Assembly (NCBI GenBank): GCA_043754515.1
Contig: JAYUUO010000074.1
Span: 1-15,620, forward strand
Source of the DNA: Armatimonadota bacterium
GTDB lineage: Bacteria; Armatimonadota; Armatimonadia; Armatimonadales; Armatimonadaceae
Length of the DNA: 15,620 bases
Direction of reading: 5' to 3'
This document shows positions 4,133 to 15,620 of the stretch, one piece after another. The position numbers and the translations under genes are program-made. Within the stretch, counting starts at the first letter, position 1. Each line of letters opens with the position of its first letter. The notes below the pieces were generated by a model. The model saw only the letters and a list, made by a program, of their open reading frames with translations, searched no databases and was not told the origin of the DNA.

Positions 4133-5350
4133 CTACCCGCGATCCCCCAGCCCGCGCATCGTGAACACGCCCGCGTAGTGGCGGCGGATCGGGGCGATAT
4201 TTGCCATCGCCCAGACCAGAGCGCGGTACGGATGCCAGGGCGGGCACGGGCGTCCCAGCACCGTGTTCCGTTCCGCGCGGGCGAGCGCGGTCTTCGCGGG
4301 GCGCATCCGGGCGTTCTCGTACTGATAGGGCCAGATCGTGTGGCGTATGGCCTCCCGTGTTGGCTCGCTGACTTCCGTTTCTTTCGACTTTGATCCTCCG
4401 GCTAACAGGCGCGGCAGAACGGACGCGAGTTCGCCCGCGTCCAGGAAGCCGAGGTTCATTCCCTGCCCTCCTATCGGCGAGACTATGTGCGCGGCGTCCC
4501 CGGCGAGGAATAACCGCCCCTTGTAGAACGTGGACGCGAGCCAGTACTCGATCCCGAATGGCGACATCCAGACGCACGTCTCGACCGGGATCATAAATCC
4601 GGTACGGGCGTAAACCAGGGCAGCGAGGTCGCGGGCGTCGCTCGTTTCCGTTCGCTCCGGCAGACGTGCCACCCAGCGCCGCAACCCACCGGGGAGCGGG
4701 AACGATTCCACGATCCCGCCTCGGGTCACGAACAGCGCGGCGTCGGTGCCAAAAGGAGTGTCATCCGCGAAATCACCCATAAGGTAGCAGTCGGGGTACG
4801 TGCCGCCGACGAACGGGATGCCCGCCGACCGGCGCGACGCGCTGTTCTTGCCGTCGCACGCGACCACGTACCGCGCCGTGACAGAGCGCGTGCCGTGATC
4901 CGTCTCTACAGTCAGGGTCGCGTGGGTTTGGCCGTATTCCGAGCCGGTCGCGGTCGCGCCGCGCACCAGGGCAGCGGGGGCGAGTTCGCACAGCCGCCGC
5001 TCCAGCACCGCCTCGGTCACGGTCTGCGGCACGGACAAGACGAAGGGGAATATGGGGTCTACCACGCCGAGCGGGAGCCGCCCGGCTAGTTTCCTGTCCA
5101 GATACACCCGCCCGCCGGGGATACATACCCCGCGCCCGGTCAGTTCGCCCGCGACGCCCGCCGCTTCCAGCACGTGGAGCGCGGGCGGATGGATGCCGAT
5201 CGCGCGGGAGTGAACCGCGGGGGAGACCCGCCGCTCCAGCACCACGCAGTCCACGCCGCATAGCGTCAGGAGGCAGGCTAGTGTTAGCCCCACGGGTCCC
5301 CCGCCCACGATCACGACGTCGGCCTCGCGCGGCGGGTTTACAACTTCCAA
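4133..5350 (-). CDS. FAD-dependent monooxygenase/hydroxylase (FAD_binding_3, UbiH/PheA-like)
   Basis: VVIVGGGPVGL Rossmann motif, VVACDG..S..R, FLAGDAAHIVSPIGGQGMNLGFLDA. Confidence 0.92.
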   Translation of the reverse strand: MEVVNPPREADVVIVGGGPVGLTLACLLTLCGVDCVVLERRVSPAVHSRAIGIHPPALHVLEAAGVAGELTGRGVCIPGGRVYLDRKLAGRLPLGVVDPIFPFVLSVPQTVTEAVLERRLCELAPAALVRGATATGSEYGQTHATLTVETDHGTRSVTARYVVACDGKNSASRRSAGIPFVGGTYPDCYLMGDFADDTPFGTDAALFVTRGGIVESFPLPGGLRRWVARLPERTETSDARDLAALVYARTGFMIPVETCVWMSPFGIEYWLASTFYKGRLFLAGDAAHIVSPIGGQGMNLGFLDAGELASVLPRLLAGGSKSKETEVSEPTREAIRHTIWPYQYENARMRPAKTALARAERNTVLGRPCPPWHPYRALVWAMANIAPIRRHYAGVFTMRGLGDRG

Positions 5351-5357
5351 AGAGAAC

Positions 5358-6047
5358 TCACGTTTCCCATATCAGTTGCAGGCGGAACGGGAAGGTGACG
5401 CGGACGTGCCACCCCCGCGGTGCAAGCCGCGCCAGTTCTCCCGGCGTGAAGGCGCGGCGGATCGAGATTAACCCGTCCGGCAAAATGAGCGAGTCGCGGA
5501 ACCAGCCGCCGATCAGCGGGAAACCGGCGTAGGCGAGCGGGTGCCGGTGAATATCGGCGTGCAACACGAGTCGGGACGCGAGTTCGCCGGACGTCTCGCA
5601 GAGAGTGACGACTTCGGCATCGCTCAGATGGTGCAGGAGATGGTTCGAGATCACGATGTCGAACCGCTCCCCGGCATCCGCGAGTTGCCGAGCGGGCGCA
5701 CACGCGAAGCGCACGTTCGGCGGTTGCGGCAGACTCCGCGCATAGGCAATGGCGCGATCGTCCGTATCGGCCCCGACGAAGCAGGACGTCAGGCCGTCGC
5801 GCCGCGCATAGCCCGCAAGCCGCCGCAACACGTCCCCGCCCCCGCAACCGATGTCCAGTAGTGACGCGCCGGGACCCGCCGCGCGTAGTACCGGGCGCAG
5901 ATACCGCGTGTACAGCCCGCGCCAGCCGCTCACGAGATGGTTCACGCGGTCGAAGTCGCGGTACGTGTTGCATAGCACGGACGCGTCGCACAAGGAGTCG
6001 TCCATGATCTCCGCGCTGTCTGTCGCCCGCGTTTTTAGCACCGTCAT
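5358..6047 (-). CDS. Class I SAM-dependent methyltransferase (229 aa)
   Basis: Start re-called at ATG 6047 (MTVLKTRATDSAEIMDD), 8 nt after the PKS stop; the longer track ORF overlaps the PKS. Motifs LLDIGCGGGD, FDIVISNHLLHHL, DGLISIRRAFT. Confidence 0.88.
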   Translation of the reverse strand: MTVLKTRATDSAEIMDDSLCDASVLCNTYRDFDRVNHLVSGWRGLYTRYLRPVLRAAGPGASLLDIGCGGGDVLRRLAGYARRDGLTSCFVGADTDDRAIAYARSLPQPPNVRFACAPARQLADAGERFDIVISNHLLHHLSDAEVVTLCETSGELASRLVLHADIHRHPLAYAGFPLIGGWFRDSLILPDGLISIRRAFTPGELARLAPRGWHVRVTFPFRLQLIWET

Positions 6048-6055
6048 TCGCGCGG

Positions 6056-7168
6056 CTATGCCTTCCGCATCACGGCGGTCTCCACGGTCAGGCCGGGGCC
6101 GAACGCCATCGCGACGACCGGATCGCCCGCCCCCGTCAGCGTCCCGGCGCGGAGCATTTCCGCTAGCACGAATAGAATAGTCGCCGAACTCATGTTGCCG
6201 TAATCCCGTAGCACGCGCCGGGAGGCGGTGAGTGACGTTTCGCATAGGTCGAGCGCGGACCGCACCTTGTCCAGGATCGCCCGCCCGCCGGGGTGTACCG
6301 CCCAGTGTGCCACGTCCTGGGCGCGTAAGCCGGAACCCCCGAGCGTCGGCACCAGCGCGTCCCCGATGTTCGCCCGCAGGATCTCCGGGACGTACGACGA
6401 CAGGCGCATGGCGAACCCATTGTCGCCAATCGTCCACGCCATGTCCGACTCGCCGGTCGGGGTCAGTGTCGTATCGAACCGCTCCAGGATCAGGGCGGGT
6501 TTACCGCCGCTTGGCTCACGCGCCGATACCACCGCCGCCGCCGCGCCGTCCGCGAACACCGAGCCGCCCAATATCGCGTCCGTGTCGCCGTCGAAGCGCA
6601 GGTGGAGCGAGCAAAGTTCGAGGCAGACGACGAGTACCACGGCGCGGGGGTCATTCTCGCAGATGGTCTTTGCTAGCCGTAGTGCCGGGAACGCCGCGTA
6701 GCATCCCATAAACCCCAGGTGAAAGCGCGGCACGCTCGGCGGCAGGTTCAGCGTGCGCACCAGATGGTAGTCCAGCCCCGGCTGAAAGAAGCCGGTGCAG
6801 GACGCGGTGATGACGTGCGTCACGTCGGGCGCGTCGAAGCCATCCGCGTTTTCGAAGGCGCGGCACGCGACCTCGGCACCCAGGCGGCGCGCCTCGGTAG
6901 TGTAGAGCGCGTTCCGCTCGCCTGTAGTGGGGTTGCGCAACGTGTCGGTCGCTCCGTCATAGAAGATGCCGCCCGCCGCGCCGGGCAGGAAGTCGGGAAC
7001 CGCGCTATGCCGCGTTTCTATGCCCGACTGGCTGTACAGGTAGGAGCGTACCCGCTCCTGTTTGCGGTCTCCGCCCGCCGAGAACCGCTTCATGGCTTCG
7101 GCGATGAAGGGTTGCGGGTAGGCGGTAGGCGGAACGGCGGTCTCGATGTGATGAAGGTAGACGGGCAT
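6056..7168 (-). CDS. Type III polyketide synthase (chalcone/stilbene synthase family)
   Basis: Catalytic triad in context: MGCYAA (Cys), VHPGG (His), YGNMSS (Asn); also SCTG, ELCSLH, FADGAAA, AFGPGLTVE. Confidence 0.95.
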   Translation of the reverse strand: MPVYLHHIETAVPPTAYPQPFIAEAMKRFSAGGDRKQERVRSYLYSQSGIETRHSAVPDFLPGAAGGIFYDGATDTLRNPTTGERNALYTTEARRLGAEVACRAFENADGFDAPDVTHVITASCTGFFQPGLDYHLVRTLNLPPSVPRFHLGFMGCYAAFPALRLAKTICENDPRAVVLVVCLELCSLHLRFDGDTDAILGGSVFADGAAAAVVSAREPSGGKPALILERFDTTLTPTGESDMAWTIGDNGFAMRLSSYVPEILRANIGDALVPTLGGSGLRAQDVAHWAVHPGGRAILDKVRSALDLCETSLTASRRVLRDYGNMSSATILFVLAEMLRAGTLTGAGDPVVAMAFGPGLTVETAVMRKA

Positions 7169-9742: not shown

Positions 9743-10408
9743 ATGGAACCGCCCCCCGACGAGCAAGCCGAACGCGACCCGCCCGCGATGAAACCAGGCG
9801 CGGCCCGCGCGAAGCGCAGCTTCTCCGGCCTGTCGCTCAAAGAGGCTTTACGGTGCGTGGGGCTGTCCGACGTCACCGCGTGGCGAATCGCCGCCGACCC
9901 GCGCCCACCCAGCGCGTTTTTGAGCGAGGCACTAACCCGGTTCGACGCCTTCAGCCTGACGAACTCCGAGGCGGCGAAGCTACTTTTAATTGACATCCTG
10001 TTCACCGAAACCCTGCCACAGTTCCCAGGCTTGCGGGCGTGGAAGGGCGAACCCCTCGACAGCGACGCGCTAACCGGCGTCGCGGACCTGCTGATCGCGC
10101 CGAAACGCGCCTTCATGGAAACGCCGCTTTTATGTGCCGTGGAGGCAAAGAAGGATGATTTTGATCAAGGCCGGGCGCAGTGCATAGGCGAGATGGCAGC
10201 GTGCCGGGCGGTCAACGAGCGCGACGGTCACCGACTTGATGTGTACGGCGCGGTGAGCAACGGGCAGACGTGGCAGTTTTACCGGCTCGAATACGCCGGG
10301 GCGATCCATGAAACCGGCGCGTACACCCTGCAATTCCTGCCCGAACTGCTCGCCGCCCTGTTCCACGTCTGCGCCGCGTGTGAACATAACCTGCCGCATA
10401 CCCCTTAG
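9743..10408 (+). CDS. Hypothetical protein, restriction-endonuclease-like PD-(D/E)XK fold (HsdR N-terminal-like)
   Basis: GVADLLIA...LLCAVEAKKDDFDQGRAQCIGEMAA...VYGAVSNGQTWQFYRL. Start re-called from TTG 9716 to in-frame ATG 9743. The TAG stop coincides with the IS630 end. Confidence 0.7.
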   Translation: MEPPPDEQAERDPPAMKPGAARAKRSFSGLSLKEALRCVGLSDVTAWRIAADPRPPSAFLSEALTRFDAFSLTNSEAAKLLLIDILFTETLPQFPGLRAWKGEPLDSDALTGVADLLIAPKRAFMETPLLCAVEAKKDDFDQGRAQCIGEMAACRAVNERDGHRLDVYGAVSNGQTWQFYRLEYAGAIHETGAYTLQFLPELLAALFHVCAACEHNLPHTP

Positions 10409-10608
10409 TGTGCCATCCTGTTGGAAATTAGACATTTGCCGCCCCTTCTTGTTGCAACTCCGGGTACAACCGGTGCAGTTTGACCCGAGCATCACGGGTC
10501 GTGAACTGCCCGTTCACCTTGCCTTGCAGTTTGTTGCGGGCGATCTCCCAGGCACTCACCTCCGCGTCAATATCCGCTTTGCTGATCCGCCGGTTCAAGC
10601 ATTGCCTC

Positions 10609-10631
10609 TGCGTCAAAAGCCGCTTTTGACT
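10609..10631 (+). repeat. Palindromic insert A (23 nt)
   Basis: TGC GTCAAAAGC C GCTTTTGAC T; removal restores SVMARQCL. Confidence 0.85.
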
Positions 10632-10709
10632 GCCATCACCGACACTTCGATCTCGGCGATATTGAGCCACGAGCCGTGCTCCGGCGTATAGTGGAACTCG
10701 AATCGGTTC

Positions 10710-10736
10710 AGTCGAAAACCGCCGCCGTTTGTCGGG
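10710..10736 (-). repeat. Imperfect palindromic insert B (27 nt, in frame)
   Basis: Minus strand CCCGACAAACGGCGGCGGTTTTCGACT; removal restores EACRLMNRFEFHYTP. Confidence 0.7.
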
Positions 10737-10801
10737 ATCAGACGGCACGCTTCCGCGGGATCGAAAGCCATATACAAGGACCACGCCTTGTGTGTGTTCA
10801 T

Positions 10802-10827
10802 AATTTTTTCGCCGCGAAAAGAATCGC
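10802..10827 (-). repeat. Palindromic insert C (26 nt)
   Basis: Minus strand GCGATTCTTTTCGC G GCGAAAAAATT; removal restores VLDNMNTH. Confidence 0.85.
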
Positions 10828-10869
10828 ATTGTCCAGCACGATCACGATCTTGTCCGCGTCGGGACATTC

Positions 10870-10892
10870 AGGCGAAACGCAGTTCCGCCGCA
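10870..10892 (-). repeat. Palindromic insert D (23 nt)
   Basis: Minus strand TGC GGCGGAAC TGC GTTTCGCC T; removal restores RVSNEECPDADKI. Confidence 0.8.
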
Positions 10893-11008
10893 CTCGTTGG
10901 AGACGCGCCTCAGGAAATGGGCGAAGTCGACACGGGTACGCCGCTCCGTCACTTCTACCATGCGGCGGCCGGCGAGCGGTTCCACTCCCAGGAACAGATT
11001 CGCGGCAC

Positions 11009-11037
11009 CAGAGAAATCGCCGGGGCGATTTTCCCGA
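11009..11037 (+). repeat. Palindromic insert E (29 nt; 30-mer family, loop 1 nt shorter)
   Basis: CAGAGAAATCGCC GG GGCGATTTTCCCGA; removal restores DYEYVREGAANLF. Confidence 0.9.
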
Positions 11038-11198
11038 CCTCGCGCACGTACTCGTAATCCTCGCGCTTAGCTTGACCCGCCCCGGCGGGTAACCACTCCC
11101 GCGACGCGCTGCGCAGTTCCTTCTTGCCTTCATCCACGCAGACCGCCGGCCGCTTCGCGTCGTATGGCAGTTCGTACACACCCAGGACGTCCTCCATC

Positions 11199-11228
11199 CA
11201 GAGAAATCGCCACAGGCGATTTTCTTGC
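11199..11228 (+). repeat. Palindromic insert F (30 nt, in frame)
   Basis: CAGAGAAATCGCC ACA GGCGATTTTCTTGC; removal restores YVA(K/R)MEDVL. Confidence 0.9.
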
Positions 11229-11276
11229 TTGGCGACATACTGCGGCGAGGCGGTTCCGATGCAGAACCTCTCTACC

Positions 11277-11306
11277 CAGAGGAATCGCCGGGGGCGATTC
11301 TCTCGA
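11277..11306 (+). repeat. Palindromic insert G (30 nt, in frame)
   Basis: CAGAGGAATCGCC GGG GGCGATTCTCTCGA; removal restores IKPW(K/R)VERFCI. Confidence 0.9.
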
Positions 11307-11324
11307 TTCCAAGGCTTGATCGCG

Positions 11325-11332
11325 TTTTTTTT
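11325..11332 (-). promoter_or_regulatory. Slippery A8 site, probable programmed -1 frameshift joining IS630 orfA and orfB
   Basis: CTA AAA AAA ACG; a -1 shift gives LKKNAIKPW, the usual junction in this IS630 group. Confidence 0.8.
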
Positions 11333-12089
11333 AGCCGGGCGCAGACCGCCGAGTCGCTGATACTGTCCACCAGTTTGAGCTCCACTAATTTGTCGGCGAG
11401 GAGTTGCATCGTCCAGCTCGCCCGGCCTACGGGAGGCGTAGAGCAGGCAAGGAGAGTCAGCTGGGCTTCGACCGCCCCCGTGATCTTCGGTGTTTTCCCC
11501 GGTCGTGGTTTCTCAGACAAAGCCGACTCGATCCTCACTTGAACAAAAGCGCGACAGATGCGGCTGATCGTCGGACGCGAAACCAGAAGCGATTGTGCGA
11601 TTTGTTCTTGTGTCTCAGGTTTGTCTTGACTCTTATCGGCTAAGAGTAGGATGCGGGCGCGATTCGGGACGCGGGCAGAGGCATTGCCTTTGCGCATGAA
11701 ATCGAGCAGGTAGTGACGGGCTTCCGGTGATAAAGTGACGGCAAGATATTGGCTCATGCATTCATTCTCGAATTGATAAGCATATTACTGGATGCTTCAC
11801 TTAGCCTTTCAGTTCATAGCCTTCGGATTGCTTAACAAGGCGGTAATCCGGATAAGCATTGCGGGCAGGCGCATCAAAATTAATATTCGCTTTATTCAAA
11901 CGAGCTCCAAACCAGTTTTGGAAATGGAATTCTTTGTGAATACCACTCGCCGATGATAGTGTCGCGGTGAATGACGAGGACTGCGTCCGCCCCGGTGTCG
12001 CGGCAAAGCCGCTCGTAGTCGCGGACCGCTTTCCTGTTTATCCCGGCCATTTCGGGAGAGGTTGCCACTGTAGCGGGGTTCGCTACCTT

Positions 12090-15079: not shown

Positions 15080-15620
15080 TTATTTAACCGAGGACTGGTC
15101 ATAATTCAAGCCGCTCTTACGGAACGGTTTTAACCCGCGACTGGTCGGCAGACCGAGTTCATGCCTCGCCCATAAGCCCAGTTCATAAACCAGTATCGCA
15201 CCTGAAACAAATCGGCTCGTTGCCATCTTTCCTTTTGTCGGCACATCACAATGACTATCAAAGATCGAATTGAAATGCTCATTGAAGTTTTCGATCCCCT
15301 TCGAGACCTCCTTACCCGCGTCGGCGTGCGGACATTTCCCCCCGCGTGTTGCCACAAGTTCCATGCCGCGTAGGTGACAAGCCGCCTCCTTCTCCTCGGT
15401 CCGGTAATGCTGATCCCCTAAAACGAAGCGAGCGCCCGTCGGCACTTCGGAAACCATCTCCTGACCCACCTTACCGTCATACACATTAGCGGCAGTCAAT
15501 CGTGCCGAGAGCGCAATCCAGGCATCTCCTACCGTTGCCGCCACGTGAAGTTTCCACCCATAAACCCATCCGTTCGATGAAAACGTGTTTTCATCTGTCC
15601 AACCCCTCTTCGTCCACCCT
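15080..15620 (-). mobile_element. 3' part of a degenerate DDE transposase (IS982/IS4-like), runs off the window
   Basis: GWVYGWKLHV, RLTAANVYD, FVLGDQHY, IENFNEHF. Appears to lack a few residues before IENFNE, and probably has a 1-nt slip before a native TGA at 15106-15108. Confidence 0.75.
15575..15598 (-). repeat. Palindromic insert H (24 nt, in frame) in the second transposase
   Basis: Minus strand ACA GATGAAAAC AC GTTTTCATC G, perfect 9-bp arms; removal gives GWTKRGW(N/T)GWVYGWKLH. Confidence 0.75.

Follow-up and report, generated by a model that had tools for sequence, protein, structure and literature searches.

Why does a single transposase gene hold seven short hairpins, and how did they get there? 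The question is raised by a stretch of 15,620 nucleotides from an uncultured Armatimonadota bacterium (hereafter the window). A preliminary description made from the letters alone had singled out two 23-base segments within it, A and D, that lie in opposite orientation. They were taken for insertions of one element family, which keeps its structure and not its sequence, was selected for a single-stranded hairpin, and is able to insert either way round. Here, the window is compared with the remainder of its own genome (G000, 5.13 Mb), with three other genomes of the same genus (G001, G002, and G003), and with relatives of the interrupted gene in public genomes.

The interrupted gene is part of an insertion sequence (IS) of the IS630 family: it encodes an HTH plus DDE_3 transposase whose two reading frames meet at an A-run, and it aligns over the whole gene with a relative, L010. 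In the Pfam searches, ORF1 (positions 11272-11757) matches HTH_32 (1.8e-12) and HTH_29, and positions 10613-10867 give a weak match to DDE_3 (22.4 bits, which is under the cut-off of 28.6). A scan of public genomes, with one genome per species, gave 134 stretches related to this IS. The best two of the 134, L009 and L010, served as reference relatives and are from the MAG Armatimonadota bacterium GFS_9362, a congener (G002). L009 shows 73% identity to L010 and 62% to the window IS. The second frame of L010 is uninterrupted, and this relative was therefore used as the insert-free reference for a base-by-base alignment. The A-run and the two-frame layout are present also in L010 and L009, and the same holds for most of the 19 relatives that were translated. 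Hence, the A-run represents the normal frameshift site of the family and is not a lesion. Searches of G000 with blastn and tblastn revealed no further copy of the window IS, which is thus single-copy in the assembly.

Relative to L010, the window IS carries seven surplus blocks of 30, 30, 29, 23, 26, 27, and 23 bases, every one of which is a hairpin. The features of the locus, with the types of hairpin discussed below, are:

About 10407 to 11802, minus strand: IS630-family insertion sequence; its ends were set by the L010 alignment and are approximate
11325 to 11332, minus strand: run of eight A, at which ORF1 (...LKK) passes into the -1 frame (KKNAIKPW...)
11277 to 11306, minus strand: insert #1, family 1, 30 bases, in frame, after KPW
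11199 to 11228, minus strand: insert #2, family 1, 30 bases, in frame, before MEDV
11009 to 11037, minus strand: insert #3, family 1, 29 bases, shifts the frame, after DYEYVRE
10870 to 10892 (alternatively 10867 to 10889), minus strand: insert D, type II, 23 bases, shifts the frame
10803 to 10828, minus strand: insert C, an odd hairpin with the T-tract first, 26 bases, shifts the frame, directly after VLDN
10711 to 10737, minus strand: insert B, type III, 27 bases, in frame, adds PTNGGGFRL
Within 10609 to 10634, plus strand: insert A, type II, 23 bases, shifts the frame
15574 to 15597, plus strand: a further type II copy outside the IS, TC followed by a 9-bp stem with a 2-nt loop and TG

Elsewhere in the window, the minus strand at 4133-7168 holds a small biosynthetic cluster with a type III polyketide synthase (chalcone/stilbene synthase domains), a methyltransferase, and an FAD-dependent monooxygenase; an NYN/OST-HTH protein and an NlpC/P60 protein with SH3 domains are encoded nearby.

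The inserts are no product of the assembly. Logan contigs from three other studies contain pieces of the IS that retain A, B, C, #1, and #2 with 0-10 differing letters, and these independent contigs, with the inserts in place, rule out an assembly artefact. None of the pieces skips an insert. Joints expected of empty-site or spliced variants of the IS were not found in four runs, as represented by assembled contigs, which drop rare variants. The runs thus give no direct indication that the inserts moved recently.

Besides the seven inserts, no additional stop or shift was seen relative to L010. Four of the seven inserts shift the frame and stops follow after each of them, so this copy is a pseudogene; the broken frame leaves it dead. 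Could the transposase nevertheless be made, with the inserts cut from the transcript or skipped by the ribosome? Frames that are otherwise clean would be consistent with such a scenario, as would the finding that the lengths of 9 of 16 inserts in genes (counted by eye) are multiples of three. However, lengths of 23, 26, and 29 are mixed with 27 and 30, and the inserts comprise several unrelated hairpin types in both orientations. Moreover, one family-1 insert in another IS has an in-frame stop, most copies lie outside genes, and no known RNA family was matched within the window at gathering thresholds. Removal or bypass of the inserts is thus very improbable.

Turning to A and D, the letters quoted for A (10609-10631, plus strand) and D (10870-10892, minus strand) are found at these coordinates. 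Inspection by eye also bears out that the two align without gaps and that their stem differences are paired (T-A to G-C, A-T to G-C, A-T to G-T, and G-C to C-G). Both are true insertions: the homologous sites in L010 are empty, and each of the two amounts to a surplus of 23 bases. Relative to the transposase gene, A is antisense and D is sense, and members of the family are found both ways elsewhere, in keeping with insertion in either orientation. When folded as single-stranded DNA, A is a strong hairpin, with -7.3 kcal/mol (z -3.9) for one strand and -7.5 kcal/mol (z -3.3) for the other. D folds more weakly than A, with -5.4 kcal/mol (z -1.7) for the minus strand and -4.1 kcal/mol (z -1.1) for the plus strand. 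As to the other inserts, #2 gives -8.3 kcal/mol (z -3.6), while B and C fold weakly, with z about -0.2 (-0.24 for C).

The boundaries of A and D can be resolved against L010 only to within 2-3 bases. For A, the preliminary description gave 10609-10631, the gap in the L010 alignment is 10612-10634, and the stem-loop itself covers 10612-10630. Reading the unit as TGC, hairpin, and T is one of the permitted solutions; the filled and empty pairs discussed below instead give TTC...T or C...TGC. At the joint of D, an open sense codon results only with TGC+19+T or 19+TGAA, according to our own reading.

As a signature of the family, TGC...T did not hold. The pattern search that had been proposed, TGC-[8-9 bp stem, 1-3 nt loop]-T, gives 14 matches in the genome compared with 9, 16, 24, 6, and 19 in five dinucleotide shuffles, and with looser settings 45 compared with 48, 51, and 58. 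The 12 matches other than A and D among the 14 do not resemble them. Conserved are instead a (T)C on the 5' side of the hairpin and a TG on its 3' side. The pattern C-[A-tract hairpin]-TG occurs 78 times in G000 and 2, 1, and 2 times in shuffles, and the TC...TG version 58 times compared with 0, 0, and 0. Within this dispersed family, which is defined by the fold and the short flanks and not by the stem sequence, A is a member of the GTCAAAAGC/GGCAAAAGC subgroup, and D belongs, as a diverged copy, to the GGCGAAAC subgroup. A copy similar to A is present at C143:27430-27466.

Of the 78 copies of C-hairpin-TG, 28 lie inside a 183-bp element and 50 outside it. This element is present in about 40 copies in G000 (e.g., C150:30254-30436) and has 16-bp terminal inverted repeats with TA on both sides, features by which it is an IS630-type MITE. 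A type II hairpin is situated in the middle of the MITE, so that the hairpin has been multiplied by hitch-hiking. An IS605/omega-RNA reading of a 32-copy hairpin was dropped because this hairpin lies within the same TA-flanked MITE.

Is it the structure that is kept? Copies outside the MITE were collected with a pattern consisting of a fixed TCG, variable bases, AAAC, two loop bases, and a final TG. No constraint was placed on the 3' arm, since choosing hairpins and then finding pairing would be circular. Seventeen copies have no mismatch in the 3' arm, three have one and two have two, and a separate random hump appears at 5-8 mismatches. The 17 perfect type II copies carry eight different stems, with GGCAAAAC in eight of them. 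These results bear out the claim that structure is kept while sequence varies, and they support the conclusion that stem variants persist only when both arms change together.

Two further architectures share the TC start and the TG end with type II. Family 1 reads CAAGA-AAAYCGCC-loop-GGCGRTTT-CTCTG and is 29-30 bases long, with 35 copies in G000. Its end motifs pair poorly and are conserved as sequence, and its core varies in a paired manner. Allowing up to three mismatches, family 1 is found 29 times in G000, nine times in the congener G002, and not at all in G001 or G003; the reversed control gave 0. The core AAAYCGCC...GGCGRTTT gives few matches in relatives beyond G000, and these are mostly without the family end motifs. 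The strict type II pattern occurs three times in G003 and is absent from G001 and G002. Type III is built from an outer stem, a mismatch, and an inner AAAYNGC-G-GCNRTTT.

The suggestion that B and C may be longer relatives of A and D is not supported. B, of 27 bases, is of type III, i.e., of another structural type, and matches a copy at C138:35902 in 25 of 27 bases (read by eye). C, of 26 bases, has its T-tract first and has no clear relatives. The load on this one IS thus comprises two type II hairpins, three of family 1, one of type III, and one odd hairpin. Counting A-tract hairpins of all kinds, G000 has 365 loci, and the strand hits number 979 compared with 180-235 in shuffles, which is about a quarter. 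A GTAG hairpin seen in two IS copies was dropped as a family, as it is present at two loci only.

Paired changes would also be expected if the hairpins were made in place by local template switching or fold-back synthesis at A-tract sites, without transposition, since local synthesis renders the arms complementary by construction. That 17 of the 22 stems are perfectly paired even though their sequences differ is in line with this mechanism. In addition, where A, D, B, and #1 are missing from L010, a stretch of 7-8 bases close to the empty site is similar to one arm of the hairpin that occupies this site in the window; the resemblance was read by eye, carries no statistics, and may be due to chance or to a target preference. 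However, hairpins with the same stem, loop length, and flanks are found at unlinked loci, as illustrated by the eight perfect copies that share one stem. Likewise, the 35 copies of family 1 have conserved ends, CAAGA...CTCTG, that do not pair, and family 1 is present also in a congener. Whole elements are moreover nested within others. Synthesis in place, which would account for the lack of target duplication discussed next, is therefore improbable, and we favor dispersal of preformed elements.

Comparison of filled and empty sites provides information about the inserted unit. Besides the IS, such pairs were obtained from a gene elsewhere in G000, with the gene's own paralogous units and those of G002 as the empty sites:

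C112:12317 to 14950: large repeat-domain gene with four inserted hairpins (30 and 24 bases), the frame being kept by length

The family-1 insert in this gene amounts to a net gain of 30 bases. Type II inserts in two units give a net gain of 24, which can be read as TTC, a 20-base hairpin, and T, the G that follows being part of the target; the third hairpin also gives a net gain of 24, read as C, hairpin, and TGC. It follows from the comparison of filled and empty sites that the inserted unit consists of the hairpin and four bases, in agreement with the 19 + 4 of A and D. How these flanking bases are divided between the two sides varies among cases, 3+1 or 1+3. No direct repeats flank the inserts in C112, i.e., there is no target duplication, and neither TA nor a duplication was seen at three filled and empty pairs and the seven sites in the IS. 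Across these ten sites, no fixed word lies beside the insertion points. For copies on C11, C154, and C126, the congeners gave no usable matches as orthologous empty sites.

Nesting is illustrated by a DUF5131 gene on the prophage-like contigs described below, in which the loop of a family-1 element holds two type II copies; together they amount to 78 bases and are in frame. A DNA methylase gene on these contigs has likewise received a family-1 hairpin in frame, and another lies farther on.

Where in the genome do the hairpins reside? A crude test based on ORFs and GC3 places 286 of the 334 classifiable loci outside genes, 34 in frame, and 14 at a frame change; the corresponding numbers for 3000 random sites are 1677, 1243, and 80. 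Two prophage-like contigs hold 50 of the 365 loci within 1.5% of the genome. Their phage genes include portal, tail tube, tape measure, Mu Gam, and lysozyme, and the two contigs flank a type I-E CRISPR-Cas system.

This system (Cas1, Cas2, Cas3, Cse2, Cas7, and Cas5) is encoded at C143:1-1314 and C138:1-9003. Its CRISPR array is split over two contig ends, and both contigs run on into the hairpin-rich prophage-like DNA.

Around 26 transposase hits (DDE_3, rve, DDE_Tnp_1, TnpB, and Y1), 16 strict hairpin loci were found in 25.6 kb. This corresponds to 0.63 per kb near transposases compared with 0.071 per kb genome-wide, an about 9-fold difference. Other IS630-type copies also have inserts, as seen by eye. 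Among 20,000 random 1.1-kb windows, 18,839 are without a hairpin and the maximum is four. Seven inserts in 1.4 kb is far over even the intergenic density, and since the load exceeds the maximum in random windows to such an extent, tolerance alone may not explain it.

Two diverged copies of another IS630-type element (C262:900-1800 and C149:6400-7400) have three hairpin inserts in common, one of which is in C262 a 15-base remnant that keeps the frame. As the inserts are common to the two copies, an IS that already carried them was copied onward.

These data raise the possibility of targeted insertion, in which transposase genes and other mobile DNA are preferred by the elements or by their mobilizing enzyme (perhaps because such DNA is often single-stranded, or because of short motifs) and the IS is in effect silenced. 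The density near transposases and the seven inserts within this single IS fit such a preference, and at least one strict hairpin is present at 10 of 18 DDE-type loci. In other IS630-type copies, inserts are located close to the catalytic DN and E motifs. Moreover, site #1 is occupied also in L009, the 62%-identical IS of G002: a family-1 hairpin of 30 bases is inserted at precisely this position and with the same orientation, 24 of the 30 bases being identical, while L010, the closer sister of L009, is empty there. A second hot region is at #3, where L009 has a different hairpin (AAAGTTGC core) about five bases away. A scan of 51 relative loci for perfect 8-bp hairpins within the gene revealed an A-tract hairpin only in L009. 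With respect to site #1, either the same spot was struck twice or L010 lost the insert cleanly. An insert at the identical position in a congener IS points to a site preference, which is outside the predictions of the model that we favor (see below).

Against targeting, hairpins are frequent also between prophage genes and within the ordinary repeat-domain gene on C112, and a hairpin is present at only one of the eight TnpB and Y1 loci. No target motif common to the seven empty sites of L010 is visible. The common sites could also be permissive loops of a protein that continued to function with in-frame inserts, or reflect an old insert that L010 lost. Targeted insertion is hence unlikely.

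The hairpin families, their insertion, their covariation, the lack of target duplication, and the enrichment in transposase genes and prophage-like DNA are directly supported by the data. What moves the hairpins? We consider it probable that A and D represent a REP-like mobile element that is moved in trans as single-stranded DNA. The element is a non-coding A-tract hairpin of 17-20 bases together with four flanking bases, (T)C-hairpin-TG. It would move as single-stranded DNA and be recognized by its fold; its copies land in either orientation without duplicating the target. The unit defined by its fold, the fixed ends, the two orientations, the absence of duplication, the nesting, and the head-to-head pairs are features also of REP elements and of IS200/IS605-type single-strand elements (PMC8266576; PMC3733652). 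The build-up in mobile DNA would result from insertions being tolerated there and from their being copied along with the host element.

In this model, the hairpins are moved by an HUH/Y1 (IS200-like) enzyme that presumably acts in trans. The candidate is a distant IS200-like Y1 gene at C71:14121-14621, which is single-copy and encodes an HLH motif; the protein scores 25.8 bits relative to the IS200 NCBIfam cut-off of 55. Each of the four genus genomes has one close copy (56-66% identity), a pattern expected of a domesticated transposase. A split Y1 copy is present on C279. No hairpins lie beside the three Y1_Tnp loci of G000, i.e., no RAYT gene flanked by hairpins was found, and the link between enzyme and hairpins is accordingly one that we infer.

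A chromosomal and vertically inherited Y1 enzyme together with the hairpins could also constitute a built-in system that riddles and silences IS and prophages, with recurrent positions in unrelated copies. We regard this extension as doubtful.

How does this element compare with known systems? Miniature derivatives with hairpins are known for the IS200/IS605 family. According to the mechanism summarized in PMC8266576, the hairpin is the recognition element and insertion occurs without target duplication. The hairpins described here resemble this family in both respects, i.e., in having a hairpin and in lacking a target duplication. They differ in that there is a single hairpin and not separate left and right ends, and in that no fixed tetranucleotide marks the insertion point. 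IS630/Tc1-type MITEs have terminal inverted repeats and duplicate a TA target, whereas neither a TA nor a duplication accompanies the hairpins described here.

REP/REPIN sequences, which are moved by RAYT (TnpAREP) Y1 transposases, are dispersed palindromes of 20-40 bp that are mostly extragenic, are present in both orientations, and sometimes form head-to-head pairs or clusters (PMC8266576; PMC2817692). Recognition of these REPs involves the folded single strand and short conserved bases next to the stem. The Y1 enzyme cuts this folded strand at CT or CA. The units discussed here, 23-31 bases long, dispersed in many copies and mostly extragenic, are similar. In contrast to REP/REPIN-RAYT systems, however, there is no unpaired GTAG at the 5' foot, the flanks being (T)C/TG or CAAGA/CTCTG, and there is no REPtron layout with a Y1 gene flanked by hairpins. 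Copy numbers are in the tens and thus lower than in the classical REP families. Moreover, at least three architectures with common end bases are involved, and the load inside transposase genes is heavy.

Among intragenic palindromes, the intragenic REPs and the Rickettsia RPE-4 and RPE-6 of Di Nocera et al. 2013 (PMC3733652) are small palindromes within ORFs that encode extra peptide segments. Some genes were struck twice, and different REPs lie near the same site in homologous genes. Both features as given there have counterparts here, viz., palindromes within ORFs and inserts at nearly the same site in homologues. The CGTC-type REP of that account carries an unpaired CGTC at its terminus and a CCA tail; its stems, of 8-9 bp, start with A-T pairs, and its loops comprise 4-5 bases. 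In contrast, GTC in the CGTC of A is paired, the loops here have 1-3 bases, and a CCA tail is missing. The genes highlighted in that paper function in replication and repair, whereas transposase and prophage genes are mainly affected here, and, compared with the intragenic REPs it describes, many of the present inserts break the frame. Hence, the hairpins are REP-like in anatomy, yet they lack the defining tags of both described super-families. The literature surveyed holds no description of such repeats in Armatimonadota.

What does the locus mean for the biology of these elements? Few components of bacterial genomes are as poorly understood as small palindromic repeats. To our knowledge, nearly all work on them concerns Proteobacteria. 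The present case is from an uncultured member of the Armatimonadota, in which several architectures without the known tags have end bases in common, keep their fold by paired changes, and accumulate in transposase and prophage genes. The hairpins are ready substrates for tests of an orphan Y1 enzyme. Should the accumulation be targeted, it would represent a new way for one mobile element to disable another; if it is untargeted, the locus nonetheless offers a clean natural record of the frequency of hairpin insertion.
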